Made by a program: the position numbers and the translations under genes. 64,000 bases of DNA from Klebsiella phage KPN8. Positions 8,196 through 29,225 of the stretch are shown in pieces; position 1 is the first letter of the stretch, and every line of letters starts with the position of its first letter. The stretch lies in sequence record OP079919.1; one strand, given 5' to 3'. The notes under the pieces were generated by a model, which worked only from the letters and a program-made list of their open reading frames with translations, made no database searches and was not told the origin of the DNA.

Positions 8196-10076
8196 ATGAC
8201 CACACCAACTCAACTACCGATACCCAGTAGCAATTTGCTGGATTCGAGATTTAACTTTGAGAAGTTAGACCAGATAGTAAACTCAGATGCCGATTTCTAT
8301 TTGGACCGTTTTGGCAAACAACGTCTTACCGTTTTGGGCGCCACCAATCAGCTCATCCAAAGCCTGAAAGATCAAACTGGTGCCAACAATGTAACCTACG
8401 TCAAATCCAAGGTGGATAAAGTACTGTCATCGATAGGGTATTCCCTTGACGTCATTCCAATGAATATCTTTGACAAGGCTTATTTGTGTTCGGGAACTGA
8501 CAACCCAGATCCTAATACTTGGATCTGGACCGCCGCCCTGCAGGGCGTTTTATCGGATATCGCTTCTTATAAGCTTTTTACCCTCAACGGAAATGACTAT
8601 TATACAACTTTCTCCCTACGAATACCTGGAGGGGTTTATCAGATCGACGATCTGGTTAGTTTGGGTAAGGTAGCAGGGACTGGAGGAGGAGCATCCTTTA
8701 GGACCAACATCGTTATCAACGGAGATGGAAAAAGCAGTTCGGTTCTTCGTCTTATAGGTGATGATAAACAATTGTTTAAATTCACAGAAAGCCGTTTAGT
8801 CATGAGGGATATAGGGCTTCAAACTAACGGGGCTCGTAACATAGGGATGGAATTAGGCGATCAAAATAATTGGGTCCCGATGGCCCACTCCCATCTTGAC
8901 AATGTTTCGATTACCGGATTTTGTCGCGGATTGCTAATAAGCCATTGCTTTGACAGCACGTTCGATTCTTTATTCATATCCGAGATAGCCGATACGGGTA
9001 ATGCGGTTATACCCGCTACCGGTATTGAAATTGCGCAGTTTTTAGGAAAAGATTCCTCTAACAATCCAGATAACTCTAACCAACTGACGTTTATTAACTG
9101 TGTAGTTGAGACGGCTAGGACCGATAACGCTATTTTGTTTTACGTCAACGGAATTAGTAAAAGTTATCCCCACCACGCCATCAACTTCTTAGGTGGGCAC
9201 CTGGAAACCCATAGACGGAACACGGTCTGTTATAAATTTAACAACATGGCCCTGTCAACCTTCACAGGAGTGACATTCAGTCAGAACGGCACTGATTCTA
9301 CTAACCCTGTAAACGTTGGGGTAATAACTGACTCCTGGAATATTATCTTTAATGGCGGAAGAACAGTAACCAATAATGCTAAAAACACTTACGATGATAC
9401 TTGGGATAAATTGATAACCGTAGCGGGATCTAGCATGGGGATCACGTACATGAATCATCATTTTATTACCCCATACCAGACGTATTCTTCGTATAACCGT
9501 AATGCCAACACCGTGTTCAATTTTACCGGGGCGACCGCGGGAATAAACGCCATCGATGCCGATCGCTGTAGATTGAACGACTTCACGTTCAAGCCGTTCA
9601 CCAAATCTATAGAAATAACCAGAATGGATTTGATTACTCAGCGTTTCAGGATATCCGTAAACACTTCTGGTAGTCTGGTTTTCGCGTACTCTAATGATGT
9701 TACTGGCGCCGCCGCTATGACGGATTTGGTAACCATCACCAATACAGGGAATGCGACTTTTCTTGGGTCCGTTACGGCAACTAACGTAACCGGGACGTCC
9801 GATGAGAGGTTAAAAACAGAAATAGGAGAAGTTGATCAAGTTTTAATTGATGTTGTTAAAAGTCTACGGCCTAAGAAGTATCGACTGAAAAACGACCCCC
9901 AAAACAAAATTAGAGTGGGATTCATCGCCCAAGACCTAATAGAACTTATGGATAAAGCTGGATTGGATTTCAAGAAATACAGTATTATCGCAGAGTTTAA
10001 TATTCCTGGGGATGATTCAGAAAACACGTATTATTCCTTGGACTATGATGAAATAATGTTGTTAAGATCCTTGTAG
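8196..10076 (+). CDS. tail spike/fibre protein 1 with conserved N-terminal anchor and C-terminal intramolecular-chaperone (S74-like) domain
   Basis: Its N-terminus MTTPTQLPIPSSNLLDSRFNFEKLDQIVNSDADFYLDRFGKQRLT is shared with eight other genes in this window. The C-terminus DERLKTEIGEVDQVLIDVV...GFIAQDLIEL...YSLDYDEIMLL matches the auto-cleaving chaperone domain known from endosialidase-type tail fibres. Confidence 0.8.
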   Translation: MTTPTQLPIPSSNLLDSRFNFEKLDQIVNSDADFYLDRFGKQRLTVLGATNQLIQSLKDQTGANNVTYVKSKVDKVLSSIGYSLDVIPMNIFDKAYLCSGTDNPDPNTWIWTAALQGVLSDIASYKLFTLNGNDYYTTFSLRIPGGVYQIDDLVSLGKVAGTGGGASFRTNIVINGDGKSSSVLRLIGDDKQLFKFTESRLVMRDIGLQTNGARNIGMELGDQNNWVPMAHSHLDNVSITGFCRGLLISHCFDSTFDSLFISEIADTGNAVIPATGIEIAQFLGKDSSNNPDNSNQLTFINCVVETARTDNAILFYVNGISKSYPHHAINFLGGHLETHRRNTVCYKFNNMALSTFTGVTFSQNGTDSTNPVNVGVITDSWNIIFNGGRTVTNNAKNTYDDTWDKLITVAGSSMGITYMNHHFITPYQTYSSYNRNANTVFNFTGATAGINAIDADRCRLNDFTFKPFTKSIEITRMDLITQRFRISVNTSGSLVFAYSNDVTGAAAMTDLVTITNTGNATFLGSVTATNVTGTSDERLKTEIGEVDQVLIDVVKSLRPKKYRLKNDPQNKIRVGFIAQDLIELMDKAGLDFKKYSIIAEFNIPGDDSENTYYSLDYDEIMLLRSL

Positions 10077-10080
10077 TTTG

Positions 10081-10160
10081 GGAAATTGGGGGCGTATTTT
10101 TAACTAACGTACCATAACGTCCCCCCCCCACTCCAATTTAGTCAAACAAAGGGTGTTATG
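10081..10160 (+). repeat. conserved ~80-bp upstream element, copy A, containing a C9 tract (10121..10129) inside an inverted repeat AATTGGGGG / CCCCCAATT
   Basis: Aligns along its length with 22505..22580. Both copies end in ...AGTCAAA(C/T)AAAGGGT...ATGATGAC, the start of a tail-spike gene. Confidence 0.8.
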
Positions 10161-12299
10161 ATGACGACTCCAACTAAGAACGACATTCCAAGCAATAATT
10201 TGTTGGATGCTCGTTTTAACTTTGAAAAGCTCGATCAGATTGTTAATAGCGACGCGAACTATTACCTTGATCGATTTGGTAAACAACGACTCACTTCGGC
10301 CGGATTGGAAGATTTAGCCAGACGATTATCTGAAGATTATGAATCCACCCTATCTAATCAGGATGGGTATAAGAAAATGGGGATGGTGTCTGATTTTACT
10401 ACTCTCAGAACTATCGCCCCAACAATGGAAGGTCAACGCATTCTGCTCAGGTCGGTTGACGCTGGTTCGAATAATGGATCGGGAGAGTTTATAGGACATT
10501 TAGGGAGCAATGGGGTTGACGACGGGGTTAATGTCGCGGTGGGATCCAACTTCTATTGGGAGAGGCTTTCGACTGATTTTGTTAAATCTTCTTCTATAGG
10601 TGATTACACTCGGATTAACTCCTTTATTTCAGCCGGAAATAAGAAGATCACTGTCGATGCCGATCTCAGCGGGTGGCTTAACGTCAAAAGTAACACCACG
10701 ATAACTTTTAACCCATTGTGTCGGCTGATACCTGATACCGATGACAAAGTCGGCATAAGTATTAGAGGAGCCGCCCCAACCTCCTATGTTAATCTAGCTA
10801 CTGATGCATTAGGGATAGATGGCTCAATTACCACCACTAATGACGTTTTTAACATTGGTGATTGGCTGGAAATTAGATCCAACAAGGTTCTTCCCGGCGC
10901 GAATTTTTATCAGGTTAAGCAATCTGTTTTACGCAAAGTGCTTCGTAAAACACAAAATGGAAATGGAACTTGGACATACCGTCTCCACAGTAGTTTAGGT
11001 TATAACTTTAACGTCAGCGACGGTGCTTCCGCTGGGGTTGCGACAGTATTGGAAAATATTGTTATCGATGGGGCTAACTTAAATAAAGACAATTTCACCA
11101 ATATCTTCACCATAGGGATAAACTGTTATTACGTTTATAACCTCACTATAAAAAATATCAACCTATTCGGAACAAAAGTAAAGGATTCTGCCTCAGACAC
11201 TCCAGGAAGATCCGGAATAAAACTGTATAATTGCGTTAACGTTAGAATCGATAATGTGAACGCCTCTTATATAGGGTGGTATGGTGTAGAGGTTATGGGA
11301 TGCAGTGAAAACGTAGATGTAAATCGTTTATACGGTGTGGATTGTCGACATACCGTTTCCATGAACTGGATCGAATCTGGCGACCTTTATGGTGGGCCTA
11401 TGTGGGTTTCGGTAAGGAACTCAGCAAGTCACGCTGCAAGATTAAGTGGGTTTGACACTCATGATCTAGGAAAGGGGATCGCATTTATTAATTGCCAGAG
11501 TTTCGATTCTGGTGATGATGGATTCCAAGTAAGGGCGATGGACACCGTTCTAATCGATTGCCATGCTGAAGGATCGACACTTGATGGCTTCGGCGGCGCT
11601 ACTGGCGCAAAGAACAGCAAATTAGTAAACTGTTCTTTCAACTACAACGTCAGATACGGAATTAATTTAGGTTATGAAGGCGGTATTGTTATCGACTGTG
11701 ACGTCGATAATAACGGTTACATGGGGATTTGTACCATCGGCGGACTCATTCAAGGAGGGTCGGTCACCAATAATTATCCGGCTGCTATCGATATAGGCGC
11801 CGGATTTAATGCCGCCCAAACCGATCTCAAAATCGATGGTGTTAGAATGCCCTCTTCGACCGCCCAGACAAAAATTTTGAGTTTTGCTGGTGACGCGGTA
11901 GCCGCTAACAACAAACCTGAGTTGGTTAGAATGGAAAATTGTTACGTTCCTGGTTACGGAAGAGATTGGGTCAGACTGGTATCGTTCACCGTCCAACCTT
12001 TACCCCCGGTGCTTAATAATAATCTACTTACTTCCAGCTTAACCTCCCCTGGAAAAATAAGCGGGCAAGTCCAATTATCTGCAGGGACAGCCACGGTGAC
12101 AACCACAGAGGTTTTCTCACAACTTGGTAGCGGTGCAAATGTTTTAAAATACTCATCGCAGATTAAGTTGAAACCTATCGCTCGTTCTGCCAATATAGGC
12201 GCTCATTATGTTTCAGCAATCAACAACGGGACGTCCTTTGTAATCAATTCAACCAATTCCTCGGATGGCTCGACCATTTATTGGGAAATAACACTTTAA
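10158..12299 (+). CDS. tail spike protein 2 (right-handed beta-helix depolymerase-like)
   Basis: Conserved N-terminus MMTTPTKNDIPSNNLLDARFNFEKLDQIVNSDANYYLDRFGKQRLT. Repetitive N/G/V-rich beta-helix-like segments (NVRIDNVNASYIGWYGVEVMGCSENVDVN). Confidence 0.75.
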   Translation: MMTTPTKNDIPSNNLLDARFNFEKLDQIVNSDANYYLDRFGKQRLTSAGLEDLARRLSEDYESTLSNQDGYKKMGMVSDFTTLRTIAPTMEGQRILLRSVDAGSNNGSGEFIGHLGSNGVDDGVNVAVGSNFYWERLSTDFVKSSSIGDYTRINSFISAGNKKITVDADLSGWLNVKSNTTITFNPLCRLIPDTDDKVGISIRGAAPTSYVNLATDALGIDGSITTTNDVFNIGDWLEIRSNKVLPGANFYQVKQSVLRKVLRKTQNGNGTWTYRLHSSLGYNFNVSDGASAGVATVLENIVIDGANLNKDNFTNIFTIGINCYYVYNLTIKNINLFGTKVKDSASDTPGRSGIKLYNCVNVRIDNVNASYIGWYGVEVMGCSENVDVNRLYGVDCRHTVSMNWIESGDLYGGPMWVSVRNSASHAARLSGFDTHDLGKGIAFINCQSFDSGDDGFQVRAMDTVLIDCHAEGSTLDGFGGATGAKNSKLVNCSFNYNVRYGINLGYEGGIVIDCDVDNNGYMGICTIGGLIQGGSVTNNYPAAIDIGAGFNAAQTDLKIDGVRMPSSTAQTKILSFAGDAVAANNKPELVRMENCYVPGYGRDWVRLVSFTVQPLPPVLNNNLLTSSLTSPGKISGQVQLSAGTATVTTTEVFSQLGSGANVLKYSSQIKLKPIARSANIGAHYVSAINNGTSFVINSTNSSDGSTIYWEITL

Positions 12300-12357
12300 C
12301 CTTTGCTGGATGGTGATTGGTCGACGCCGGTCTAAAACTAATTTGTTAGGGTCATTT

Positions 12358-12391
12358 AAAATCCAACCGGTCTTAAGACCGGTTGGATTTT
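12358..12391 (+). terminator. rho-independent terminator (AAAATCCAACCGGTCTTAAGACCGGTTGGATTTT)
   Basis: Perfect palindrome with a T-run, immediately downstream of the stop of tail spike 2. Confidence 0.7.
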
Positions 12392-12433
12392 ATGCTTACC
12401 GATATTTCAACCTTCCTGACCCGAGGAATAGCA

Positions 12434-14665
12434 ATGACTTTACCAACGCAAAAACCTATTCCGAGTTCATCCATAACTGATCAATTATTTAATGCCGAAA
12501 AGATAGATCAGGTTGTTAACTCGGATGAACTAGAATATTCCGATCGTTTCGGAAAGAAACGATTCACCTTTTCAGGATTATACAACGTTGTACAGAATTG
12601 GATCAGCAGTTTGGGGTCAAGTTCCGGGGCGTCAGCTGTAGGTCTTAGCCAGGGCGGTACGGTTCAGGCCGGTCTCTACAACGTTGTTAATGTCGAACAA
12701 TTCGCTTATCTCAATACTTCAGATGATGATTGGGGTCCGGCTTTTAGAGGGGCCAGGGATAAAGCAATCGAGATATCTGCTCCGGTCGTTACTTTTAAAG
12801 GTCAGTACAAAATAAAAGTAAGCTCCGGTCCGACCACTCACACCCTGCCTTTCGACGACGGAACTTACGATACAAGAAGAACTGGCGAAGTTTTACTTTC
12901 TCCAGAAACCTTGAATACAATGCCTGTAGGATTGGAATGGCCTTCCGGACTCTCCCTTAAATCAGACGGGATCGGAAATAACTCAATTACTTTCGATTGG
13001 GATAATGCCACTGTTGGGCTGTCTCAGGGGATTGGTATCTGCATCAGGGTCAGAAACTGGGACGGAACTTATCTTGCTAAGGCCGGGTCAGTTAATCGCA
13101 TGAATAGCGATATAGCCAATGTGGAGTTTGATGGGTTTAGCGTAAATAATGCCTTTATCGGAATACTGGCCGACGGTATCGTGGGATCAGTCAGTTGGGG
13201 CAGTCTCCAGTTTAAGAAATGTTTCTTACCTATGACTTGGCAGGGCGCCGACAGATGCACGATTAAGAAACTGAGATTTACAGATTGTCCTACCGGATTC
13301 TCGGTAGGTGGATGGTGGCTGACCCGTAACGACATATCAGGATCCAATACCGGATTGGGGGTCCCGCCTTACATTGCAGGAACCGACGTGTACTGCATCG
13401 GATGGATGGACTTCGTTAAAATTGAATCTCTGGAGTACTCTAATAGTACTTCGTTTGACAATTCCCCGTTGTTTGCCGCGGTAGATACTTTCTTCGACAC
13501 CTATTTCTACAAAAGCGCGAACAGCGCTAGAACTGCTAGTGGTGGTCGATGCACTAATACAGGCCCTAACCTAACTAGCGCGAGTACGTTAGCGGCAGAT
13601 TCTCCGTTCTTAGGTATCGCCGGGCGCGCTCACTCACAAATGGGGCGTTACCACCGAAATCACATCTTGAATGAAATTATTTCTCTCAAGACGTGGGGAT
13701 GTTTCAGGGCATCAGTCCTTACCACTGCTAATGGAAACTCGGAGCTCAACGTCCCGGGGTGCATAGTGGGTACCGCGTACATCGAACAGGCCTGTAAGGT
13801 CACGGTTGGCGGTGACGCCACGGTGGGGGGAAGTAATGACTTCGTTACATCAGGTAAAGATGTTTGGAAAGGGACAAAAACTTATTCTAAGTATTATGCT
13901 GGTGAAGGATCCGTAATCGTTAAAGATGGATGGTCTGTTAATAGTTTGGGGTTGTTCCCGTCAGCGCGGACTGTTGCAAGAAATGATAATGGGTATAATA
14001 ACAGACTAAGAAGAACAATTGTCGACGATGGCACAGGGAAACCGGTCATACTCGAACAGCTTTCTGAAACGGTCTATGCGACCCCTCCTCAGAAATTTAT
14101 TCCTAACGCCGTGGGTTCAGTAGACGACAAATATTACTGGGTTCAACTAGAAAAGAACGTCTCTTCAAAGGCTACTATTTATTCTGGTGTTCCAACGACG
14201 GCGGCGCAAACACCTATAACCTCTCCGGCCATTAAAGTAATAATGGAACGTTTAGGTAACAGAGTTAAATTAAAAATTAATTTGGATGCGTCAAATTACG
14301 CAGCCGGCGGCAGTAATCCGGTGGTAATCGGATTTACTGGGGTCTATAAACCTATTCTTACTGCAAGTCCCGATTACGCCCTTGGGGCGTACGGTCCGGT
14401 GAGACCCATAATGGTCAGCACCAAAACATTTACAGTTACCGATTCTACTTCAGTGAGTCGGACGTTTAGGATCGAGCCGGTCGCGCATCAAGCTGGGGTA
14501 TTCACTGATGGCGGCGGGGTTAATAATTACTACTTTGTTTTGCTCACCCAGCATCATACTTCTGACACTAATAGACTGTTGTGGTCGGATTTCACCGGTT
14601 CGTTATGTCAGATAGAAATAGAATATGATACGAATGACGCTATCACTTCATCCAGCGTATTTTAA
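12434..14665 (+). CDS. tail spike protein 3
   Basis: Start set at MTLPTQKPIPSS, which restores the conserved N-terminus. The track start at 12383 lies inside the terminator hairpin. SD GAGGAATAGCA upstream. Confidence 0.75.
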   Translation: MTLPTQKPIPSSSITDQLFNAEKIDQVVNSDELEYSDRFGKKRFTFSGLYNVVQNWISSLGSSSGASAVGLSQGGTVQAGLYNVVNVEQFAYLNTSDDDWGPAFRGARDKAIEISAPVVTFKGQYKIKVSSGPTTHTLPFDDGTYDTRRTGEVLLSPETLNTMPVGLEWPSGLSLKSDGIGNNSITFDWDNATVGLSQGIGICIRVRNWDGTYLAKAGSVNRMNSDIANVEFDGFSVNNAFIGILADGIVGSVSWGSLQFKKCFLPMTWQGADRCTIKKLRFTDCPTGFSVGGWWLTRNDISGSNTGLGVPPYIAGTDVYCIGWMDFVKIESLEYSNSTSFDNSPLFAAVDTFFDTYFYKSANSARTASGGRCTNTGPNLTSASTLAADSPFLGIAGRAHSQMGRYHRNHILNEIISLKTWGCFRASVLTTANGNSELNVPGCIVGTAYIEQACKVTVGGDATVGGSNDFVTSGKDVWKGTKTYSKYYAGEGSVIVKDGWSVNSLGLFPSARTVARNDNGYNNRLRRTIVDDGTGKPVILEQLSETVYATPPQKFIPNAVGSVDDKYYWVQLEKNVSSKATIYSGVPTTAAQTPITSPAIKVIMERLGNRVKLKINLDASNYAAGGSNPVVIGFTGVYKPILTASPDYALGAYGPVRPIMVSTKTFTVTDSTSVSRTFRIEPVAHQAGVFTDGGGVNNYYFVLLTQHHTSDTNRLLWSDFTGSLCQIEIEYDTNDAITSSSVF

Positions 14666-14680: not shown

Positions 14681-16441
14681 ATGACGCTCCCAACTCAAAA
14701 CGCTGTTCCTAGTTCAGCTAAGAACGACCAGCTCTTTAATGCTGAAAAAATAGATCAGGTCGTCAATAGTGACGACCTCCAGTACACAGATCGCTTCGGT
14801 AAGAAGCGATTTACTTTCTCTGGTTTATACAACATAATCCAAACATGGGTTGCGAGTTTAAGTGATACCACCGGAGCAGGATCGGTCGGGATCGCGCAAG
14901 GGGGGTACATCCAGCAATCTCTTTTGGAAGTGACACCGATGATGCAAGGTGCCGTAGGAGACGGCGTCGCTGATGACTCACAGGCGTTGATCAAAACATT
15001 TACTACTGCTAAAACACTTGGATTGCGGGTTAAAATAGATCGCGCTTATCTTTGCTCCTCAGCGCTTGCCGTTTCTGGACCGCTATACTTAGAAGGAATC
15101 AACCCGGAAACAGGAAAAATTATTTTTACAAATAAAGATGACTTCGGTCTTTACATTACTCAGATCAAATCCACAGACTTCATAACCATAAAAAATATCA
15201 GCATTACGGCCGGAGCTAAAATCGTTAATCCAAAGGGCCTCCTAACCATCGACGGAAGCTCTCAATTAACAACTGATCAGTCGGCAGGCAAATACCTCTT
15301 AGCAGATAGGACAATCCGCCGCGGGCTGTTGGATAATGTTAATCTCGATTGCCTTAGTGGGAACTACGCGGTTAACTACCTTAACATTATTTCATGGATG
15401 AATTATTCCGTTAGAAACATATTGATAAGAGGGTCAAGGGACAACCTGTCGGCGCTCACTAATGGAATACTTTTAAACGGCGATGGTTTCCCCGTCGACA
15501 TCCACATGACCGACCTTTTGATGTATAACCTAGGTCGGGCTATTAACTCCGTGGATTACGTGGAAGGACTCCACATTTCAGAGTTTGAATTTGTAAACGT
15601 TTTAAGGGGGATTAGCGCCGATTACGACTCAAATTATTCCAAACTCAGCTCATCGGTATGCGGATGTTACGGACCTATGATTCACACGGGTCATGTAAAC
15701 CTGGGAACGATGACTGGCGCTGACTCATGCATTTACATTAAAAATACTGTCACTCCTCGTATCAAAGATCTTTTGCTTTTCAATAGCGCCGGCGCTGCCG
15801 TCACAAACAGTTACGGGGTTTACGTTTACGGATCAACCAGCGGTGGGGAAATATCCAGCGTTTATGTTGCGGGTGGTGGTGCCGCCAACACGAAGACCAA
15901 TAATTATTCAATTAGAGTATATGGCGCCAATGGATTAAACATCAAGGACTGTACCGGAAGCTATGCGGGAGCCGTAGTGTATCTTGAAGGGGTTTCCACT
16001 AACTGTGTCATATCAGGAAATAGTGGTATCAGCACCACTAACGTCGTTTATATTTTCAGTGCCAATAACGCCAACAATAAAATAACTTCTGATAACTCGG
16101 GAATAGGAATCACGGATAAGGTGGTCGGCGGAGATCCTAGCGGGTCTTATGTGGAACCTCTAATCTGGCAGAGGAAGTACACACTGAATTTAGCCGCGGC
16201 CAAAGATGCCGGGACGTCTTTCACTTTTAACGTCCCGATTCCCGGGGGAAATTTTGGTGTTGCTCCAGATGCCGCTTTCGCGACATTACCCTCCAATCTT
16301 ATCGGACAATTTTCATATAACCCTTCGGCCAGTTCAGCAACAAGTCTGAATGTAACCATTTATTTTATCTCGGCCGCAGCCATAGGGAGTTACGATATTT
16401 TAATTTCGGCAGCTGGTTTTGGCGTAAGCAGAACGCAATAA
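14681..16441 (+). CDS. tail spike protein 4 (pectate-lyase-3-like beta-helix)
   Basis: Conserved N-terminus MTLPTQNAVPSS...DRFGKKRFTFSGL, paralogous to spike 3. Motif QGAVGDGVADDSQALIKTF resembles the GxxGDGxTDD signature of pectate-lyase-superfamily phage depolymerases. Confidence 0.75.
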   Translation: MTLPTQNAVPSSAKNDQLFNAEKIDQVVNSDDLQYTDRFGKKRFTFSGLYNIIQTWVASLSDTTGAGSVGIAQGGYIQQSLLEVTPMMQGAVGDGVADDSQALIKTFTTAKTLGLRVKIDRAYLCSSALAVSGPLYLEGINPETGKIIFTNKDDFGLYITQIKSTDFITIKNISITAGAKIVNPKGLLTIDGSSQLTTDQSAGKYLLADRTIRRGLLDNVNLDCLSGNYAVNYLNIISWMNYSVRNILIRGSRDNLSALTNGILLNGDGFPVDIHMTDLLMYNLGRAINSVDYVEGLHISEFEFVNVLRGISADYDSNYSKLSSSVCGCYGPMIHTGHVNLGTMTGADSCIYIKNTVTPRIKDLLLFNSAGAAVTNSYGVYVYGSTSGGEISSVYVAGGGAANTKTNNYSIRVYGANGLNIKDCTGSYAGAVVYLEGVSTNCVISGNSGISTTNVVYIFSANNANNKITSDNSGIGITDKVVGGDPSGSYVEPLIWQRKYTLNLAAAKDAGTSFTFNVPIPGGNFGVAPDAAFATLPSNLIGQFSYNPSASSATSLNVTIYFISAAAIGSYDILISAAGFGVSRTQ

Positions 16442-16554
16442 TCTTTTAGTATTTAATAGATTGAGGGCGTGTAATCGATAATAACTGAGGGATGATGATT
16501 AAATTTATATTACGTCGACTTCATCCCAGATTGATCGTCATTTAGGAGTTTTCA

Positions 16555-20711: not shown

Positions 20712-20764
20712 TGGTGAGCTAGGGGAGGGGGCGCCCTCCTCCCTTATTTATGAGGTTTCTAAAA

Positions 20765-22480
20765 ATGACCACGCCTACCAATAATGACATTCCGAGCAGT
20801 TCGGTACAAGATAGGTTGTATAACGCCGAGAAATTTGATGAATTCATGAATTCATCGAACACTAATTTCACTGATCGCAAAGGAGTTTCACGATGGACAC
20901 TAAGCGGAATCAGAACTGTTATAAGTAACTGGATGACGAGTCTGAGTAGCAATGCAGGCGGAAACACCATAAAGGTCGATAATGCGCTACTACCAGACTT
21001 GGACTATGCGCCGAGCATTTTTAGATTTATGACCGACGCAGATATCGATTCGATGAAGAACACTCTGGGTAGCGAAGTTCCTGTCGATTACGCCTTACAA
21101 GCAGTTATCGATGCCGGTTATAAGTCAGTCAGATTCCCCCACAACGTTAAGGGCATCTATATTCTTTCTGGGTTGGTAACACTCCCTTCAGCCTTCACAA
21201 TCTTTGGAACGTGTTCCAAACCATATAGTAGTATTACCGACTCTTCCTTCTTAAATAAAGGGGTGACTTTACGTAAAGCCGTCGGGGCGGATTATCTGTT
21301 CGGAGCCGGTTCGGTATTCAGAATTTATGGGTGTAATCTAGATGGAAGAGACAACCTTCGCCCTCTAATCAACCAGACCAATCAAATACGCGGCGGAATA
21401 TTAGAAGATTGCGGGATCTACCGTTTTCTTTATGGAGTCGGGAGTTATGGTTACACCTCTATTGTTGTTAAACGATCATCCATTTGTTCAAATAACATAG
21501 GAATAAGGAACCTTATCGACAGCCGTATTATGGACGTTACCCTCAATGCCAATAAAGGTAACGGGGTCGATAACCAGGTCGGGGCCAATAATAATATTTT
21601 TGAAAACGTCAGGAATGAATGGAATGAAGGGATAGGGTATTATTTTTATGGGTCGGTGGGGAACATCATTACTGGTGAACTTATTGATAGATCTGGTTCG
21701 GCCAATGTTGTCGTCCTGGCCGGTGGATCCGCATTGATTTCAGGGGTTATCTCCCAACGACCCGCTCGTACGTTGAGTGAGGACTCAAGTTATAACACTC
21801 ATTTCTATGTGGCCGGAAGTAAATCAAAACTTTGTTTATCCGGTGTAACTACGGCAACGGGCATTGACGACGGGGGTACCGGAACTTTAACGCCACAAAG
21901 GACAATCGTGATAGGCGGGACGAATACCGACGTGACCGTTCTTTCTAGCGGGTGCGATTTATCGGGAAGTATTCTCTCGCCGTTAAGATTCGACGTTACT
22001 CCAGCTACGGTAGGATTTAGAAACAATATTGGCGTTGACGACTGGGTTAACACCGGGCAATATCAGTTCATCAAAGGAAGAGCGTCGATCGGTAGTCAGA
22101 AAAATGCGGTGATCTTGGCCAGTGGTGTGGGGAGTACCGCGACGTTAGTTTTTGATAACACAGGGTTCGTCGACCCCACTTCTAATTTCCCCGATATACC
22201 TAAGAAACGAAAAATTATCATAGAAAGCATGACTTCGGTATCGGCTTCCAGAACTGTAGGTTTTTATGAAGTTTCGTTATTGACCAGGCGTTTCTCTAGC
22301 ACTGCCGGTTTTGATGTCTTACAGGAAACATCTTATCCTGCTGGAGCGTGGGCGCGGACTACCGCAACTGGTGTTTCTATAAACATTGCCCTCTCAGCGG
22401 ACGCCAAACAGATAACAGTTACGCTAACCAACGTAGATGGCGTCGGAAGATTTATAGATGCTGCTCTTAAGTGGGATTAA
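20765..22480 (+). CDS. tail spike protein 7
   Basis: Start at MTTPTNNDIPSSSVQDRLYNAEKFDEFMNS. Full-length diverged paralogue of spike 8. Confidence 0.7.
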   Translation: MTTPTNNDIPSSSVQDRLYNAEKFDEFMNSSNTNFTDRKGVSRWTLSGIRTVISNWMTSLSSNAGGNTIKVDNALLPDLDYAPSIFRFMTDADIDSMKNTLGSEVPVDYALQAVIDAGYKSVRFPHNVKGIYILSGLVTLPSAFTIFGTCSKPYSSITDSSFLNKGVTLRKAVGADYLFGAGSVFRIYGCNLDGRDNLRPLINQTNQIRGGILEDCGIYRFLYGVGSYGYTSIVVKRSSICSNNIGIRNLIDSRIMDVTLNANKGNGVDNQVGANNNIFENVRNEWNEGIGYYFYGSVGNIITGELIDRSGSANVVVLAGGSALISGVISQRPARTLSEDSSYNTHFYVAGSKSKLCLSGVTTATGIDDGGTGTLTPQRTIVIGGTNTDVTVLSSGCDLSGSILSPLRFDVTPATVGFRNNIGVDDWVNTGQYQFIKGRASIGSQKNAVILASGVGSTATLVFDNTGFVDPTSNFPDIPKKRKIIIESMTSVSASRTVGFYEVSLLTRRFSSTAGFDVLQETSYPAGAWARTTATGVSINIALSADAKQITVTLTNVDGVGRFIDAALKWD

Positions 22481-22580: not shown

Positions 22581-24311
22581 ATGACCGCACCGACTAATAA
22601 CAATGTACCGAGTAGCTCGGTTCAAGACAGATTGTACAATGCTGAAAAATTCGATGAATTTATGAATTCGGATAATCCCAATTATACCGATCGTAAGGGG
22701 AACTCCCGCTGGACTCTGAATGGGATAAGAATAGCCATATCCAATTGGATGACGTCATTGGGTACGTCAGTCGGGTCAGCCTATATTGGTAAAGGAAACG
22801 ATACTGTATCCAATCTTTTAGAGGCCTCCATCACTGAATATCTCACCGCTGAAGATCAAAATACACTCAGAAGTTCGTTGGGGGCGGAAGTCAATGTAGA
22901 TTATGCTTTAAAGGCAGCGATCGACGCAGGTATTCTCCGATTAAGATTCCCTAGGATGATAGGGATTTATGTTCTGGGCGCCGACCCTGTTACCCTTCCA
23001 ATAGGCTTTTCTATGGTCGGGGATAGAACCAGGTTATATACAGCGCCTTCCGATTCTACCTTTCTTAACAAGGGTACTGTGCTAAGATTAAGTTCCGGAG
23101 CCTCTTCGCTGTTCTTGTTAACTCAAAAGCATCAGTTTAGCGGAATTAATTTCGATGGCCGTGATAAAACGGTTAACTTAATGAAAGGAGCGGACCAAAC
23201 TCAATTCTGTAGGTTCTATAATTGCGGAATCCATCGATGGTTAAACGGATTGGGCGGATCTTCTTCAGGCGGATATACGGCTACACTTTCAGTATCTTTT
23301 TGTGATATTTCTGGAAATTATCGGGGCGTGCGTAATCTTATCGATTCCAAAATATCGGATAGTACCATTAACGCCAATGACACCAATGGGGTCGAACTTA
23401 ACGTAGGCGCCAATAACAACGTCTTTATTAATGTCAGAAACGAATGGAACAATGGCGTTAACTACTACGGGTATGGGGGTAAGCGCAACATCGTCGTCGG
23501 GGAGCTATGCGATCGAGCCGGACTCAACGGAATTGTTGCTGCGGGAGGCGCCCAGTGGTCCCTCGAAGGAGTGAATGTGCAGCGTTCGGGCAGGCTCGCC
23601 ACCCAGGGATCTGTCGACGACGCCCATTTCTATGTGACTGGTGAAGGATCATCTATCATAATGAGCGGAGTTTACACAACTCAAGGCTCTGACGATACAG
23701 GGGGTGGGAGAGTCTCCCCGTCGTACACTCTGGCTGGTGGAGGAAATTCATCTGACACGAAAACATTCTCGGCCGTGAACAGCGTCTTGAGCGGATTTGG
23801 GGTTTCAGCGATAAGACCTGGGTCCTCCACTTTCTCTAATATGAGCGTTGTGGGTTGTAACGGCTTTTACGATAGAATATCCGGAAACACAATAAATTTC
23901 TACGAAGGAAACTTCTCTTTGGGGAAAAGGGCTTCGTCGTTGAGTTTAAGTGGAACGGGTTCTACGGCACAGATCACATTCCCTACAACAGACTCGTTTC
24001 CGCAATACAGGGTGGGTTTTACCAGACAGTTGCATATAACAGCTAGGAACAACATCAATACGGGATCGGTCGCTTATTACAACGTCCCGCTATTCTTTTA
24101 TAGAGAACAATCGACCGCCGTTGTGCGAGCGAATACAAGTAAAGAAGAAACAATGGTGACCCTCAGCGGAGGAACTTGGGGTTTAACCGCGGCGTCCCCG
24201 ACCGGGGTCGCTATTGACCTGGCGGTTTCTTCTGATGGCCTGACGTTAACCGTAACGCTGACAGCCATCGATAACTCATCAAGAATCATTGATGTGGAAC
24301 TGAGGGCTTAA
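22578..24311 (+). CDS. tail spike protein 8
   Basis: Start at MMTAPTNNNVPSSSVQDRLYNAEKFDEFMNS, matching the position of spike 2's start within the conserved element. Confidence 0.7.
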   Translation: MMTAPTNNNVPSSSVQDRLYNAEKFDEFMNSDNPNYTDRKGNSRWTLNGIRIAISNWMTSLGTSVGSAYIGKGNDTVSNLLEASITEYLTAEDQNTLRSSLGAEVNVDYALKAAIDAGILRLRFPRMIGIYVLGADPVTLPIGFSMVGDRTRLYTAPSDSTFLNKGTVLRLSSGASSLFLLTQKHQFSGINFDGRDKTVNLMKGADQTQFCRFYNCGIHRWLNGLGGSSSGGYTATLSVSFCDISGNYRGVRNLIDSKISDSTINANDTNGVELNVGANNNVFINVRNEWNNGVNYYGYGGKRNIVVGELCDRAGLNGIVAAGGAQWSLEGVNVQRSGRLATQGSVDDAHFYVTGEGSSIIMSGVYTTQGSDDTGGGRVSPSYTLAGGGNSSDTKTFSAVNSVLSGFGVSAIRPGSSTFSNMSVVGCNGFYDRISGNTINFYEGNFSLGKRASSLSLSGTGSTAQITFPTTDSFPQYRVGFTRQLHITARNNINTGSVAYYNVPLFFYREQSTAVVRANTSKEETMVTLSGGTWGLTAASPTGVAIDLAVSSDGLTLTVTLTAIDNSSRIIDVELRA

Positions 24312-24378: not shown

Positions 24379-25152
24379 ATGCATAATCGTAGTGTTAAGC
24401 GTGCTAACCGCGACGCTCGTCGCGAAGCAAGACGTCAAGATAAGTCCCAAAGTAGCCAACTGAAACTGGTGGACAGCAATTTCAGTGAAGTAAATCTACC
24501 TCTTGCAAAAGCTGATCGGAGTAAGATTGAGCCGAAAAACCCAATGCAGCAAAAATATTGGGATGGGTTACATGCCCACGATGTTGTCATCGGTATAGGG
24601 GAAGCGGGTAGCGGTAAAACGTTCCTCCCAACTTGTTATGCCGCGGAACGTCTGATGGCTAAAGACGTGGAAAAGATCATCGTTACACGGCCAGTTTTAC
24701 AGGCCGATGAAGATCTGGGTTTTCTCCCCGGGGATGTTAATGAGAAATTCGCACCTTACTTCCGACCGGTCTACGATATCTTACTGAAACGCCTGGGTGG
24801 TGGAATGCTCAACTATTGCATGAAGCCTGGCGTGGAGAAAGTTGAAGTCGCCCCCTTTGCTTTTATGAGAGGTCGTACTTTTTCTGACTCAGTAGTGATT
24901 CTTGACGAAGCGCAAAACGTTACAGTCATGCAGATGAAAATGTTCATCACTCGTATGGGTGAGAACACTACGGTAATCATCAACGGCGACCTTACCCAGT
25001 GCGATCTTCCTAAAGGAGTTAAATCCGGTCTGGAAGATCTGCTGGAACGCATCGAACGAGATCCTGAAAATGGATTCCCGGTTTATCGTTTCAACGCCGC
25101 TGATAGTGTGCGGTCAGATATTTGCTCCAAAGCCCTGAAGCTTTACAAATAA
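24379..25152 (+). CDS. phoH: PhoH-like ATPase
   Basis: Walker A GEAGSGKTF, Walker B VVILDEAQN, and the conserved PhoH core LQADEDLGFLPGD. Confidence 0.85.
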   Translation: MHNRSVKRANRDARREARRQDKSQSSQLKLVDSNFSEVNLPLAKADRSKIEPKNPMQQKYWDGLHAHDVVIGIGEAGSGKTFLPTCYAAERLMAKDVEKIIVTRPVLQADEDLGFLPGDVNEKFAPYFRPVYDILLKRLGGGMLNYCMKPGVEKVEVAPFAFMRGRTFSDSVVILDEAQNVTVMQMKMFITRMGENTTVIINGDLTQCDLPKGVKSGLEDLLERIERDPENGFPVYRFNAADSVRSDICSKALKLYK

Positions 25153-25158
25153 GTCCTA

Positions 25159-25192
25159 ATAACTCCTATTCCCTTATCGGGAATAGGAGTTA
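25159..25192 (+). terminator. terminator hairpin TAACTCCTATTCCC-TTATCG-GGAATAGGAGTTA plus TTTTAAAC
   Basis: 14-bp stem. Member of the ACTCCTA...TAGGAGT hairpin family. Confidence 0.75.
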
Positions 25193-25242
25193 TTTTAAAC
25201 GCGCCACGGCCATTTATGAACTTTTCATAAGAGACTGTAATC

Positions 25243-25710
25243 ATGAACCTCATGTACGATAATTACTACGGAAAAGAAATAATTGGATTGGGTTTAGAGG
25301 GAGAAGTCATCACAATGTTAAATTTGGCGATGACTGACATTAATCACTTCGCTAAGAAAAGTATCGCTAAAGACATCAACCCCTATCCGTTCAATCTGGA
25401 AGATTTTAAACACAACCGTTTAAACGAACACTACTTCCTCGTTTTTGATGGGAAGAAAATAGCGTCGATTCTATCCGTCGTTTACGCTTTAGAGCATCAT
25501 CTCAAAATAGCTAAAATCTTTAACGTTTATACGTTACCGGAGTATCGCCATAAAGGGCTTGCTAAACGCAACCTAATCGCCGCTATCGTGTCGGCAAGAT
25601 CAAATGGGTACATTGTGCAGTTAAACGTTTACAGGTCTAATAAAGCCGCTCAGAGGCTTTACAAGAGCCTTAAATTTAAACCCGTCGAATACACTATGCA
25701 GCTCGGTTAA
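25243..25710 (+). CDS. GNAT-family N-acetyltransferase
   Basis: Motif A LPEYRHKGLAKRNLIAAI and downstream YxxLGF-like KSLKFKPVEY. Confidence 0.6.
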   Translation: MNLMYDNYYGKEIIGLGLEGEVITMLNLAMTDINHFAKKSIAKDINPYPFNLEDFKHNRLNEHYFLVFDGKKIASILSVVYALEHHLKIAKIFNVYTLPEYRHKGLAKRNLIAAIVSARSNGYIVQLNVYRSNKAAQRLYKSLKFKPVEYTMQLG

Positions 25711-25810
25711 TTTTAACGACCATAATGTTTTATTGGTAATAAACGAGAATACGTTGTTTTAAACATCGGTTTGAAATAACACGTTCTCATTTTAAACTGT
25801 AAAATAAAAG

Positions 25811-26608
25811 GTGAATGGAATGAAAGTGACTAAAGAAGAATTGATTGAACGCTTTAATCTAGTAATAGAAAAAGAAGATATTAATTTCAGTGATGGGAGT
25901 GATTCGCTTAAACTGGTCTTAGACAACCCTAAGATGACCTCTCAGGCGTTCGAGAATATAGTGGGGTGGTTAACAGAGATCCTATTCGTTGGGAGCAACC
26001 TGATACATATTAGCGAAGAAACATCATTAACTGGCGTGATTTTCTTAAACGATTTAACAAGCTACTCCAAAAAACTTCATTTAAATAACTCCCGGGTTCA
26101 TCGCACCAATATTTCAAATTTGGCTCAGTGCACCATTGCCGACTCCAAACTCCAAGATGTTTCGATTACGTCGAACGGGGAATTTGGGGAAGGAATTACT
26201 ATTAAATACAGTGATCTTATCGGCTGCGATTTGGTCAATGACTTTATTGATCACAGTTATATCATCAACAGAGATTTGACCGGAAGAACGACTTTGAGGA
26301 ATTGCCGAGTTGCGCACTCCAGACTTTTCTTTGGACTGCAAACGATAACGAATAAAAGATTCTCGTCCGTTATTATCGACGCCCCTCAATTTAGCGGCGA
26401 TTATTTCTCCATCGGATTAAATGGAGAAAGCACCGTAGGGTATATCAATGGAACCGAAAAAGTCATCGTAGCGGGTGAGAAGAGATATAACCTGGGGAGT
26501 TGGGAAGAACAATTTGTTAAGAAAGAACAAAATTTATTCATTAAAATGATGAATCAAAAGAAATTAGAAATGATGAATATGTTCTTCGATAGTTTGGCGT
26601 TTAAATAA
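25811..26608 (+). CDS. hypothetical protein (265 aa)
   Basis: SD AAAGGTGAATGGAATG upstream. No clear motif. Confidence 0.5.
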   Translation: MNGMKVTKEELIERFNLVIEKEDINFSDGSDSLKLVLDNPKMTSQAFENIVGWLTEILFVGSNLIHISEETSLTGVIFLNDLTSYSKKLHLNNSRVHRTNISNLAQCTIADSKLQDVSITSNGEFGEGITIKYSDLIGCDLVNDFIDHSYIINRDLTGRTTLRNCRVAHSRLFFGLQTITNKRFSSVIIDAPQFSGDYFSIGLNGESTVGYINGTEKVIVAGEKRYNLGSWEEQFVKKEQNLFIKMMNQKKLEMMNMFFDSLAFK

Positions 26609-26613
26609 TAAAG

Positions 26614-26650
26614 TTTTACTCTACCTCGCGATATCGCGAGGTAGAGTAAA
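26614..26650. terminator. bidirectional terminator (TTTACTCTACCTCGCGATATCGCGAGGTAGAGTAAA) between convergent genes
   Basis: Perfect 17-bp stem between the + strand gene ending at 26608 and the - strand gene ending at 26655. Confidence 0.7.
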
Positions 26651-26654
26651 TTGT

Positions 26655-29225
26655 TTAACTTACATAAATGGAAGTTAACGATAACTGAGAGAATATCCCT
26701 GAAATGTACGCCTGAACGCCTCGTGTCCCTACGGTGTAGCGATCAATAAAACTATTCATTTGGGTCGAACTAGTTCCTGAATAGTCAGTCCCTGAAACCG
26801 ACACGGAGGTTGTTCCCGATAGAGTATTGACTGAACTGGTAATATTAGTGGCGATGGATCTCGCCAAAATACCACTTCCGGGATAGTCAATTTTAAAAAC
26901 ATCAAAAAAGGTATTACCGGATTGCAAATGGGTGGCCTGCAGACAATTTCCTTTGGCCACATACAAAGCGCCGGACCAACTGCTATTATTTACTCCGGTA
27001 TTCCAGATCATCAGAGAAGAAATTGGTGTACCTGAGTTATTATAATAGGAGCAGTCACTTAACCGGAACCATTGGGCTAAATTCAAATTAGATGATGTGA
27101 CCGAACTTAACGAGTAGTCGCCGGAAAAACTTACCCCTGACGCTTTCAGTCTGTGAAGGAACGCCGAATCGGCGGTCGTTAAAGGCAAATTAGTCCCTGA
27201 TTTGACACTCCCTCCCCTCATGTTAATTTCTACACGTTGATTGGCTTCCTGGGTGCCGTCGTTGGTAATGAACCTTGATAACTCACAGTCGTTGAAATTA
27301 TAGGACCCCCTTTGTGAGATTCTCACTAGGGTGGGGGTGCCGTTGTAATTGGGGTTGTGTAATCTCCTAGCGTCGAGCCTGATATTGTGTTGAAATCCGT
27401 AAGATGGACGTTTGATAATTAAATTATCCACCCCTACGTTGTTCATACTGACTTTCATGTCGATAGGTTCGAACATAGTGTCGGTCGATGCAGAAGTATT
27501 GCTTGCCCTGGGCTTCGTGTTGGTGAAATCAATTTTTAACGTCCCGCCGGCGGCGTAGGTAACGTTGTCAAATCGAATATTCATAGGAGGAGTAACCGTT
27601 CCGTCGCGGTTTATCCAATAAATATTTTGAAGGCAACTAGAAGCTTCCGGAGTCTCAATAGTCAAGCCATCAATATCTATTTTATTAAATAGCTCACCGG
27701 CCATCTGAGACCCAGTAGGTAAAGAAGTGTAATTATCGGCGGCTCCCTGTACAATGGACCCTTCTCCATTGGACGCTAAACTGTAATATTTCCAAAATCC
27801 TCTGACCCTGACGTTACGCATAATCAGCGTCCCATCGGTGATTCCTCCGGAAGTAGTCCTGGCCTGCACAAGTGAAGGGAAAAGAAATTTTCCGTAGTAA
27901 GGGTCTCCGGATCCTCTCCCCAGTTCGTATACTGTGTCAAGTATCTCGAGAGTTGAGTTTTTAGTACCTAAGAAAACAGCAGCTCCGTCACCAATCTTGC
28001 AGTTTACAAGTTTGTAATATCCGATGCTTGGGTTATGGCTATCGAAGTTGTTGGCCGAGCAATTATCAAAAATGGTATCGGCTATCCAACCGGCCGCGGA
28101 TATCGACCCCCATCCGTAGCCAAACGCGTTTACGTTTCTTACGTATAACTTCGCCCCCCACCCATGGTGGAGTGTGTAAGATGCATAAGTGGTCGTTTGA
28201 TCCGAGGAAGAAAAGGAAGCGGTTGGGTGAGCGTCGTAGATGAAATCCACGTAGGTGTTGTAGTAATACTGAATGTCGATAACGTGACGTGATCCTATTT
28301 CCGTAATCGGTTTATTGAGTATTCTCCCCTCTTTTATGATCAAGTTGGACACATAAAAGAACTGGAAGAATATAGGTCTAGGCCCATAACGATAGTCGAC
28401 GTCCGGCATAATAAATTCACTGAAACCAGCCTGGATAGGTAGCGCCGATATGCTAGTAATCGACGTCCCGTTGTAAGGGAAGACGTTATCCATTTTGCCG
28501 TTAGCACTTATCCTGGTTACGTGAGCGAGTTTCTGAGTTTTTGCGCCAGCTTGGGTTTGTGTGCTATTATAAACATATAGGTCGTCTGAAAAATTCATAA
28601 TGACCATGCTGTCGTTTAAAGTCGTGTCCGATCCCAACGAATCTAAACAACCGTTTCCGCTTAAGAAGTCTGTGGAGGCATTAGTATTTAACTTAGTTAC
28701 CACGGAAGATCCGGAGGCATGGTTAACTAATCCGCTCGATTGAGAGATCCAGAAAGTCCCGGTAAAATCAGCCGCCGGAATAATTTTCATTCCCCCTAAA
28801 TCGGTCTTCTTATTATCGATGATCCAGTTAAACTTGGCGTTACCGGAAATCAAGTACTCACCAGATTTTTGTTTTATAGGAATGCCCGTCAATGTCGACA
28901 ATTGAATAAGGGCTAAAAGTTTGTCGGTGACGTCAACATCCCCCGTGTTCTCTATACCAAACATGTCACAGGAAAGAAATGTTTGAAGGTTAGAGACTTT
29001 ACCTCCATAAGGAAGATTTATAATTGACGACCCGTCCCCTCCGGTTAAAACATTCAGGGTTTCCTGGACGGCCGCCGCTACCCCCTTAGCGGTCAATCTC
29101 TGGTTACCAAAACGATCAGTATAGGTATTCTCATCGGAATTAATGATCTCATCTAACTTTTCGGCATTAAATCTAACATCTATAGCGGTGCTACTGGGTA
29201 TACCATTTTGTGTTGGAGTCGTCAT
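26655..29225 (-). CDS. tail spike protein 9 (856 aa) on the opposite strand
   Basis: N-terminus MTTPTQNGIPSSTAIDVRFNAEKLDEIINSDENTYTDRFGNQRLT, the same anchor as spikes 1-8. Long N/S/T/G-rich beta-helix-like body. Confidence 0.75.
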   Translation of the reverse strand: MTTPTQNGIPSSTAIDVRFNAEKLDEIINSDENTYTDRFGNQRLTAKGVAAAVQETLNVLTGGDGSSIINLPYGGKVSNLQTFLSCDMFGIENTGDVDVTDKLLALIQLSTLTGIPIKQKSGEYLISGNAKFNWIIDNKKTDLGGMKIIPAADFTGTFWISQSSGLVNHASGSSVVTKLNTNASTDFLSGNGCLDSLGSDTTLNDSMVIMNFSDDLYVYNSTQTQAGAKTQKLAHVTRISANGKMDNVFPYNGTSITSISALPIQAGFSEFIMPDVDYRYGPRPIFFQFFYVSNLIIKEGRILNKPITEIGSRHVIDIQYYYNTYVDFIYDAHPTASFSSSDQTTTYASYTLHHGWGAKLYVRNVNAFGYGWGSISAAGWIADTIFDNCSANNFDSHNPSIGYYKLVNCKIGDGAAVFLGTKNSTLEILDTVYELGRGSGDPYYGKFLFPSLVQARTTSGGITDGTLIMRNVRVRGFWKYYSLASNGEGSIVQGAADNYTSLPTGSQMAGELFNKIDIDGLTIETPEASSCLQNIYWINRDGTVTPPMNIRFDNVTYAAGGTLKIDFTNTKPRASNTSASTDTMFEPIDMKVSMNNVGVDNLIIKRPSYGFQHNIRLDARRLHNPNYNGTPTLVRISQRGSYNFNDCELSRFITNDGTQEANQRVEINMRGGSVKSGTNLPLTTADSAFLHRLKASGVSFSGDYSLSSVTSSNLNLAQWFRLSDCSYYNNSGTPISSLMIWNTGVNNSSWSGALYVAKGNCLQATHLQSGNTFFDVFKIDYPGSGILARSIATNITSSVNTLSGTTSVSVSGTDYSGTSSTQMNSFIDRYTVGTRGVQAYISGIFSQLSLTSIYVS

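Follow-up and report, generated by a model that had tools for sequence, protein, structure and literature searches.

The locus considered here lies in a stretch of 64,000 nucleotides (nt), in the following termed the window, from the genome of the Klebsiella phage vB_KpnM_KPN8 (KPN8; GenBank OP079919), a myovirus of Australian wastewater origin with a contig of 256,576 bp. KPN8 is a Miamivirus-like jumbo phage of the Chimalliviridae, the family in which Miamivirus is at present placed, and the closest phages in the collection searched, all with genomes of ~252-257 kb, are the Klebsiella phages Miami, phiKp_32 and YC1, the Raoultella phage VB_ZK_P1 (ZK_P1) and the 'Stenotrophomonas' phage BUCTxx100. 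An earlier note on this DNA had described nine open reading frames (ORFs), eight on the plus and one on the minus strand, that open with a common motif of about 50 amino acids (aa), and this is borne out both by the ORF positions and by a hidden Markov model (HMM) of the motif, hereafter called the anchor. The nine tail-spike genes, S1 to S9, are listed below together with their anchor types, which are defined further on.

8196 to 10076, plus strand: S1, 626 aa; type-A anchor at aa 1-50, predicted beta-helix body, Peptidase_S74 domain at aa 535-590
10158 to 12299, plus strand: S2, 713 aa; type-A anchor, PF27114-type N-terminal beta domain, K1-capsule lyase body
12434 to 14665, plus strand: S3, 743 aa; type-B (B1) anchor, body partly like a KN1-specific depolymerase
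14681 to 16441, plus strand: S4, 586 aa; type-B (B2) anchor, body starting with the pectate-lyase-type motif GAVGDGVADD
16555 to 18696, plus strand: S5, 713 aa; type-C anchor, predicted right-handed beta-helix body
18822 to 20711, plus strand: S6, 629 aa, GTG start; type-D anchor inside a conserved N-terminal module (N-module) of 130 aa, K2-2-like hydrolase with C-terminal beta-sandwich
20765 to 22480, plus strand: S7, 571 aa; type-E (E1) anchor, Kp9 gp42-like body
22581 to 24311, plus strand: S8, 576 aa; type-E (E2) anchor, Kp9 gp42-like body
26655 to 29225, minus strand: S9, 856 aa; type-F anchor, beta-elimination lyase body of the K64-ORF41 type

All nine ORFs are intact (571-856 aa). The annotated starts of S3 (TTG 12383), S7 (ATG 20750) and S8 (TTG 22542) are probably placed too far upstream, and because of the anchor alignment and the annotation of phiKp_32 the ATG codons at 12434, 20765 and 22581, respectively, are preferred here.

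In a six-frame search of the window, an HMM built from the first 52 residues yields exactly nine matches, all of them N-terminal and with expectation values (E) between 1e-28 and 8.5e-31, and no tenth anchor was found in these 64 kb, the next best match having an E of 0.31. The anchors share 17 invariant columns, and the similarity between S2 and S6 covers 137 residues; they are, however, not near-identical as previously described, since they display 40-81% identity in protein and 45-72% in DNA. A weak partial match to the anchor HMM (profile positions 3-35) at about aa 550-583 of S3 (nt ~14080-14180), found also in the phiKp_32 orthologue, is probably due to chance. PF27114 was considered as the family of the anchor and rejected, as this 'Phage_tail_beta' domain lies after the anchor and is absent from the anchor-bearing S1.

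The homologue of the anchor is the tailspike gp13 of the Shigella siphophage Sf11 (PDB 9OCC chain G, residues 3-63), which is matched by all nine spikes with E of 2.3e-7 to 2.6e-12 in a phmmer search against the PDB. According to the cryo-electron microscopy structure of Sf11, residues 4-59 of three gp13 chains form a bundle to which the distal tail protein gp17 contributes one adaptor helix, and salt bridges connect R16 and K19 of gp13 with E129, E136, E147 and E152 of gp17 (PMC12724387). In the AlphaFold2 (AF2) monomer model of S5, the anchor consists of a helix (14-28), a hairpin (34-44) and a second helix (46-61), modelled at moderate confidence (predicted local distance difference test, pLDDT, 64-73), and in the model of S1 the anchor region has a pLDDT below 50.

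Within the phage collection the anchor is present in 235 records. Outside the Miami-like group, almost all of the matches listed come from genomes of 37-49 kb with one copy per record, exceptions among the matches listed being one 3-kb fragment and two weak matches in Aeromonas phages of 235-238 kb. Records with multiple copies are essentially only those of Miami-like jumbo phages, and in these relatives the anchor is confined to the spike locus, where it is found at four places in Miami and at seven in ZK_P1. A scan of IMG/VR brought up no further multi-anchor arrays, only single-copy loci, nearly all of them on contigs of ~25-67 kb. Among 1.84 billion cluster representatives, 1,732 proteins are matched by the anchor profile at E <=1e-3, and in the best 150 of these 1,732 the match is N-terminal, nearly always comprising residues 1-55. 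Therefore, the anchor can be regarded as a widespread adaptor that is joined to many different bodies.

With respect to these bodies, the earlier note had counted nine different ones; different they are, yet they belong to eight rather than nine unrelated sequence families, since S7 and S8 share one. A right-handed beta-helix is assigned by homology to solved depolymerases in S2, S3 (in part), S6, S7, S8 and S9 and by fold search of AF2 models in S1 and S5, and the assignment of S4 comes from a motif and weak profile matches only. The general fold is shared, which is the usual situation among depolymerases, whereas the families differ, and presumably so do the specificities. In profile and structure searches, the matches are to characterised Klebsiella depolymerases that differ from body to body, the catalytic residues being kept in S2 and S9; NCBIfam gave no match for any of the nine spikes. 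S2 contains the Pfam domains K1-lyase_Rider (PF24149, 120.4 bits) and K1-lyase_C (PF24146, 77.7 bits; cut-off 27 each) in addition to Beta_helix, matches the PDB entries 9k4a (E 8e-113) and 7w1c (E 2e-91), and carries Y375, H435 and R459 in alignment with the catalytic Tyr311, His373 and Arg397 of the NTUH-K2044-K1-1 lyase; its body is 99.5% identical to that of the first spike of phiKp_32. Likewise, S9 matches PDB 8x8m (E 7e-51), and its Y350, H397 and R456 align with the catalytic Tyr528, His574 and Arg628 of K64-ORF41, to which it is ~25% identical (28-30% to other K64-phage enzymes); gp099 of Miami is 99.7% identical to S9.

The GxxGDGxxDD signatures reported before are exact, at aa 90 of S4 (GAVGDGVADD) and at aa 147 of S6 (GAKGDGVTDD), and occur in no other spike. 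Along its length S6 (aa 79-628) matches PDB 8iq5/8iqe with E of ~5e-58, is 62.8% identical to a tail protein of FBKp24, shares 47% identity with proteins of weberviruses for which a depolymerase annotation is given, and has E317, D328 and E374 spaced as the triad Glu267/Asp278/Glu323 of the K2-2 tailspike protein (TSP), a correspondence drawn through KpV52 from the spacing only. The C-terminal part of S6, formerly taken for a module like a carbohydrate-binding module (CBM), has no Pfam CBM match; in the alignment it corresponds to the beta-sandwich at the C-terminus of K2-2 TSP, regarded as a trimerisation domain by its authors. The similarity of S4 to phi92 gp150 (6e0v, E 8e-15) is restricted to aa 42-140; its matches among the PHROGs are labelled 'pectate lyase' and 'colanic acid degradation', its body is 47% identical to a protein of one 347-kb jumbo phage, and a homologous body of 586 aa occupies the same slot in GCA_029087405. 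S3 resembles the KN1-specific depolymerase 9m4d over aa 232-428 (E 1e-21), matches phrog_22560 ('tail protein') and is 97.7% identical to the second spike of phiKp_32. That S3 and S4 are full-length paralogues has to be abandoned, as their similarity (60.6% identity) ends at residue 99 and the bodies have no detectable similarity, while the same proposal for S7 and S8 is upheld by 42.5% identity over 590 columns (E 1e-123). Both of the latter match PDB 7xy1 (E 8e-34 and 5e-36, respectively) and phrog_6518 (E 2e-147 and 9e-153); Kp9 gp42 has been reported to be KL111-specific.

The two bodies assigned by fold search are those of S1 and S5. The AF2 core of S1 (aa 90-420, pLDDT ~85-90) has GVE2 ORF18, the RbmB lyase, K2-2 TSP and CBA120 TSP2 as top Foldseek matches, and a 779-aa tail spike of phage K64-1 shares 30-38% identity with the S1 body; the C-terminal intramolecular chaperone, already suspected, is confirmed as Peptidase_S74 (PF13884) with 51.9 bits at a cut-off of 22, and the database entry 100% identical to S1 is labelled 'putative tail fiber protein [Klebsiella phage KPN8]'. 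S5 (100% identical to KPN8_76; mean pLDDT 74.6, core ~90) matches Kp9 gp42, a GH87 glucanase and the tailspikes of AS12, P22 and Sf6 in Foldseek, and Klebsiella prophage proteins with other N-termini (PF18668, PF03906) share 51-54% identity with its body. Because the bodies would differ in specificity, one virion or one phage population might, judging from the homologues, be able to strip several capsule types, and by analogy a multi-capsule host range can be expected for KPN8.

A comparison of 41 anchors from six phages shows that they cluster into six types, A to F, with a constant gene order, and the same type order is found in three further genomes that were checked (GCA_008916925, GCA_029087405 and an ENA metagenome contig), making nine genomes in total. 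Types A, B, C, D and E follow each other on the plus strand, succeeded by genes for a PhoH-like ATPase, a GNAT acetyltransferase and a 265-aa protein, and then by type F on the minus strand. KPN8 accordingly reads A A B1 B2 C D E1 E2 F, whereas Miami possesses A, D, E and F only; B and E are typically doubled as the recurring subtypes B1/B2 and E1/E2. Within a type, identity amounts to 80-100% over aa 1-50 and drops, at a point that varies with the type (about aa 51-90), to no more than ~30%. Type D is conserved for longer, with ~100% identity across genomes up to residue 80 and at least 74% up to residue 130, and the first 50 aa of S6 are identical in 9/9 genomes compared. The columns that determine the type (13-15, 17, 18, 21, 24, 26 and 27) all fall into helix 1, where they alternate with the invariant D16, N20, E22, D25, N29 and S30, and the partner-contacting residues R16 and K19 of Sf11 align to columns 15 and 18. 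Such a pattern would fit type-specific docking partners.

The anchors are under strong purifying selection. In the same-type pairs S1/S2, S3/S4 and S7/S8, which are 78-84% identical in amino acid sequence, 60-67% of the codons for identical residues differ within the first 150 nt, and several between-type pairs have fewer such synonymous differences (41-57% of identical-residue codons); given the small numbers, this synonymous excess may, at most, hint at selection against DNA identity between neighbouring genes. Truncated anchored ORFs were also observed in relatives: phiKp_32 has a type-C anchored ORF of 259 aa (locus L002, 14876-15655) followed by an anchor-less ORF of 445 aa (15811-17148), and ZK_P1 has truncated anchored ORFs of 118-121 aa, among them a 118-aa type-E stub (locus L004, 21895-22251). 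These look like decayed or split spikes, or like empty 'docking stubs'.

Related phages retain the anchors on unrelated bodies, the 57 spikes of the nine genomes falling into 37 body families. Homology with the relatives extends from the conserved flanks into the anchors and ends at the junction between anchor and body, at about nt 90-135 in S1, nt 160 in S4, nt 400 in S6 and nt 120 in S9. The suggestion that the anchor DNA serves as a handle for recombination is supported by two crossovers which lie inside anchor-coding DNA. In the first, spike 1 of phiKp_32 begins as the S1 anchor of KPN8 for ~65 nt at its 5' end and continues as S2 from the FNFEK codons onward; through this crossover inside the anchor, KPN8 and phiKp_32 differ by exactly one spike unit, that of S1, which is absent from phiKp_32. 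In the second, slot A in Miami and slot C in GCA_008916925 contain a two-gene cassette with a DNA identity of 99.4-99.6%; the first ~100 nt are just 58% identical, and the junction is at the YTDRFG codons. Both junctions are resolved to the codon, and from them it follows that the slot-specific helix 1 stays in place while hairpin, neck and body move. The cassette itself (Miami gp092/gp093, locus L001 8001-11321; locus L044 12380-15700) encodes a 545-aa anchored and a 559-aa anchor-less protein that move as a unit; the latter is like RaK2_00526/00525 (phrog_16942) and probably rides on the anchored protein.

Taken together, these results support the interpretation given in the earlier note, apart from the points corrected above, and the region is best read as a receptor-binding-protein (RBP) locus which encodes nine trimeric tail spikes with a shared docking adaptor and beta-helix polysaccharide-degrading bodies diversified by recombination, a reading to which we assign a probability of about 0.8. 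Each spike would be built from an adaptor of ~50 residues (helix 1 at 13-28, a hairpin at 34-44 bearing Y.DRFG..R.T, and helix 2), a variable neck and the beta-helix body. By analogy with Sf11, the three adaptors of a trimer would bundle around a helix of a tail or baseplate protein and so dock the spike to the virion. During exchange, the slot-specific 5' part of the anchor is kept and everything downstream swapped, with crossovers at the two most conserved motifs, FN.EK and Y.DRFG, and entire spike units come and go between neighbouring anchors of the same type; sequence comparison demonstrates the one as well as the other.

Several points weigh against this reading. The anchor DNA within KPN8 is only 45-72% identical, with exact runs of at most 16 nt, so that recombination at the anchors must be rare or else driven by selection on microhomology events; for the same reason, repeat-mediated exchange among the nine anchors of KPN8 is unlikely. 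This suggests that the array would be stable against repeat-mediated deletion, and the handles are used chiefly where co-infecting relatives exchange DNA at equivalent slots, or else in rare events at FN.EK and Y.DRFG, and not by way of extended identity among the nine KPN8 copies. The specificities, in turn, are extrapolated from homologues that are 25-63% identical, and the confidence of the AF2 anchor models is moderate in S5 (pLDDT 64-73) and lower still in S1 (below 50). Queries with the Sf11 gp17 helix and the full-length gp17 (tblastn) gave no match in the window, in the five related loci searched or in a composite genome of Miami and phiKp_32 (best E 0.44 and 0.19), and across the phage collection the gp17 adaptor helix was found in siphophages only. 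Finally, Miami, with four anchored spikes, and relatives with seven have collinear 25-kb baseplate modules that do not differ in length.

A search for the partner by copy number likewise gave no candidate, as the large proteins of the baseplate module have no internal repeats and nothing in it scales with spike number. Six small conserved ORFs upstream of S1 (5297-8046) were considered as six adaptors and rejected, having no family matches, no paralogy to each other and no similarity to the helix. Candidates for the docking partner are gp054, gp056, gp057 and in part gp058 of Miami (locus L008, 11305-24888): the first three share a second N-terminal domain family of ~240 aa, phrog_2163, of which gp058 has residues 45-118 only. 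Since gp054 is a constant spike, a conserved 923-aa GH28/Tail_spike_N (PF18668) protein encoded together with the baseplate, the virion probably has at least one spike beyond the array. Three modes of attachment are possible: the spikes may dock directly, each at a site of its own, they may compete for common sites, or they may branch from a trunk spike.

Of these modes, the most likely is that each anchor type addresses a docking site of its own, for which we see about an even chance. Selection for distinct partners would give rise to the conservation of the types, to their differences in helix 1, to the fixed order of the genes and to helix 1 being left behind when bodies move. A more far-reaching version of this idea holds that helix 1 constitutes an address code, with six types (eight recurring subtypes) fitting different sites of the chimallivirus baseplate and recombination at FN.EK and Y.DRFG dropping any body into any slot with the address left unchanged; this we advance tentatively, and consider it somewhat less probable than its negation. 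If it were true, a doubled type such as A A in KPN8 would imply that two spikes share or compete for one site, resulting in phenotypically mixed particles, and it would provide a set of rules for building phages whose specificities, up to nine in number, could be chosen.

Alternatively, the spikes might form a branched tree as in CBA120, Menlow and PhiK64-1, where one or two of them touch the baseplate and the rest sit on their side domains, with the GH28-like or the type-D spike as trunk. The baseplate-encoded N-terminal domain of up to ~240 aa that gp054 shares with gp056, gp057 and partly gp058 would suit such an arrangement, as would the unusually long invariant N-module of type D, the anchor-less second protein of the gp092/gp093 cassette and the fact that known multi-RBP Klebsiella phages have been modelled as branched. 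However, Pfam and PHROGs searches, which were of limited sensitivity in that no profile-profile search was made, reveal no T4gp10-like/XD or other branching domain in the nine spikes, and Tail_spike_N (PF18668) is found only in the separate baseplate-module spike gp054 of Miami. Moreover, the nine spikes use one homologous anchor family and not different conserved peptides, and the Sf11 anchor binds a tail protein and not another spike, so that a branched tree appears doubtful, though it deserves consideration.

Somewhat less probable still, and in our view unlikely, is a single generic docking site for which all nine anchors compete, each particle then carrying a random subset of spikes and the types reflecting descent only. 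This would readily explain why the length of the baseplate module is unchanged between phages with four and seven spikes, why two spikes of the same type are tolerated in KPN8 and its relatives (A A, B B, E E), and why Miami can do entirely without types B and C; it would also agree with the single site type in siphophages bearing this anchor. It accords poorly, however, with types that are ~80-100% conserved in nine genomes and yet differ at those helix-1 positions that contact the partner in Sf11, with a type-D N-module 100% identical over 80 residues in all genomes, and with a fixed order of types in which bodies that change slot leave helix 1 behind.

That part of the array is non-functional cargo, i.e. 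decaying or unexpressed duplicates kept by hitch-hiking and hence a repertoire of less than nine, is very unlikely: the truncated anchored ORFs of phiKp_32 (259 aa) and ZK_P1 (118-121 aa) speak for it, but the nine intact ORFs, the purifying selection on the anchors, the intact catalytic residues of S2 and S9 and the close counterparts elsewhere in the group (97.7-99.7% for S2, S3 and S9, and bodies of one family in the corresponding slot in the case of S4 and S6) speak against it.

Separate from the attachment of the spikes is the genomic setting of the array, whose remaining features are given here.

24379 to 26608, plus strand: three non-spike genes between S8 and the reverse-strand S9
24379 to 25152, plus strand: PhoH-like ATPase (Pfam PhoH, 244 bits)
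25243 to 25710, plus strand: GNAT acetyltransferase (Pfam Acetyltransf_1, 46 bits)
25811 to 26608, plus strand: ORF for a 265-aa protein, function unassigned
26615 to 26650, both strands: palindromic hairpin with a perfect 16-bp stem, located where ORF 25811-26608 and S9 converge with their 3' ends

The trio of PhoH, GNAT and 265-aa genes resides at the same position in every relative, namely Miami, phiKp_32, YC1, ZK_P1, BUCTxx100 and GCA_029087405. The hairpin at 26615-26650 is terminator-like on either strand, and Miami has an annotated terminator at the equivalent place; further GC-rich intergenic hairpins are located at 8050-8083 (before S1), 12367-12386 (after S2) and 20722-20741 (after S6). 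Because of these hairpins and of the terminators of Miami at comparable places, the array may be organised in several transcription units. Scans for sigma-70 promoters and terminators were overall not above chance, and individual intergenic hairpins alone were noted. Upstream of the array, a 155-aa ORF (2758-3225, plus strand) matches the nuclease Acb1, which counteracts the cyclic-oligonucleotide-based antiphage signalling system (CBASS), with 49 bits (Pfam PF23474; cut-off 27), and an Acb1-type gene was also flagged upstream of the array on two related contigs. In phiKp_32 two IS200/IS605 TnpB genes (locus L002, 876-2012 and 28015-29151) lie a few kb on each side of the array and are absent from the corresponding places in KPN8 and Miami. 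The structural genes of Miami are annotated as phiKZ-, EL- and RisingSun-like. BUCTxx100 (OR529409) is 93-96% identical to the Klebsiella phages in the conserved parts of the region and has the same anchor-typed array, with seven spikes; its 'Stenotrophomonas' host label looks doubtful, or else points to an unusual host jump.

In the publication on KPN8 the tail spikes are unanalysed and no host-range or enzyme data are reported, and a search of the literature brought up no study analysing the spike locus, be it of KPN8, of Miami or of the phages related to them. It is already known that Klebsiella jumbo phages have multi-depolymerase arrays, the structural homologue of the anchor was published in 2025, and the genome is public. 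What appears to be undescribed in the literature searched is the ninefold use of a siphophage-type adaptor by a chimallivirus, as well as the ordered slot types with distinguishing residues on a predicted interface helix and the mapped crossover motifs. Capsule type is the main barrier to Klebsiella phage therapy, and phages with many depolymerases represent the natural solution; the locus has a simple modular layout of a homologous 50-residue adaptor with a solved relative, ordered slots and natural crossover points. The latter mark where bodies can be exchanged without loss of incorporation and thereby offer testable design rules for multi-specific phages. Candidate enzymes are one lyase of the K1 type and one of the K64 fold, a hydrolase of the K2-2 type and, with specificity unassigned, four or five more bodies. 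In addition, the locus links the tailspike attachment of small siphophages to a nucleus-forming jumbo myophage and raises the contractile-baseplate partner of the adaptor as a question.

Compared with known systems, the closest parallel to the anchor is gp13 of Sf11 (PDB 9OCC; J Virol 2025, PMC12724387), to which all nine spikes are homologous over their first ~55 residues at ~45-55% identity and which shares with them the N-terminal position, the motif PT..PIPS...D.KFN..K.DE.VNSD..YTDRFGK.R.T and the beta-helix enzyme body that follows. Sf11 and ~200 similar siphophages of 45-48 kb, however, have one copy, and docking of the Sf11 type takes place on the distal tail protein, whereas KPN8 is a contractile-tailed chimallivirus with nine copies in six types and no detectable homologue of gp17 or its adaptor helix.

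With respect to the array, KPN8 resembles PhiK64-1/RaK2 (Alcyoneusvirus) and vB_KpM_FBKp24 in having a tandem RBP cluster of beta-helix depolymerases. These phages have 9-14 RBP genes, each for a capsule-specific depolymerase, and a multi-capsule host range, and several KPN8 bodies are homologous to those of jumbo phages (S1 to K64-1, S6 to FBKp24, S9 to Muenster and K64-1). In contrast to KPN8, their systems have been modelled as one anchor with T4gp10-like branching domains and several different short conserved peptides, while each RBP of the KPN8 array bears the same homologous anchor of ~50 aa in ordered types, and the family is Chimalliviridae. Miami, phiKp_32, YC1, VB_ZK_P1 and BUCTxx100 have the same locus with the same flanking genes, anchor types, order and PhoH/GNAT insert, but compared to the nine spikes of KPN8 these relatives carry 4-7 anchored spikes with mostly unrelated bodies, near-identical counterparts existing only for S2, S3 and S9. 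The two-RBP podophages of the KP32-like, K1-5 and SP6-like groups, finally, also have a conserved N-terminal peptide or anchor that permits the exchange of bodies, both natural and engineered; unlike in KPN8, their anchors belong to unrelated families (a T7 gp17-like N-terminus, or peptides of 7-11 residues) and serve at most two RBPs.

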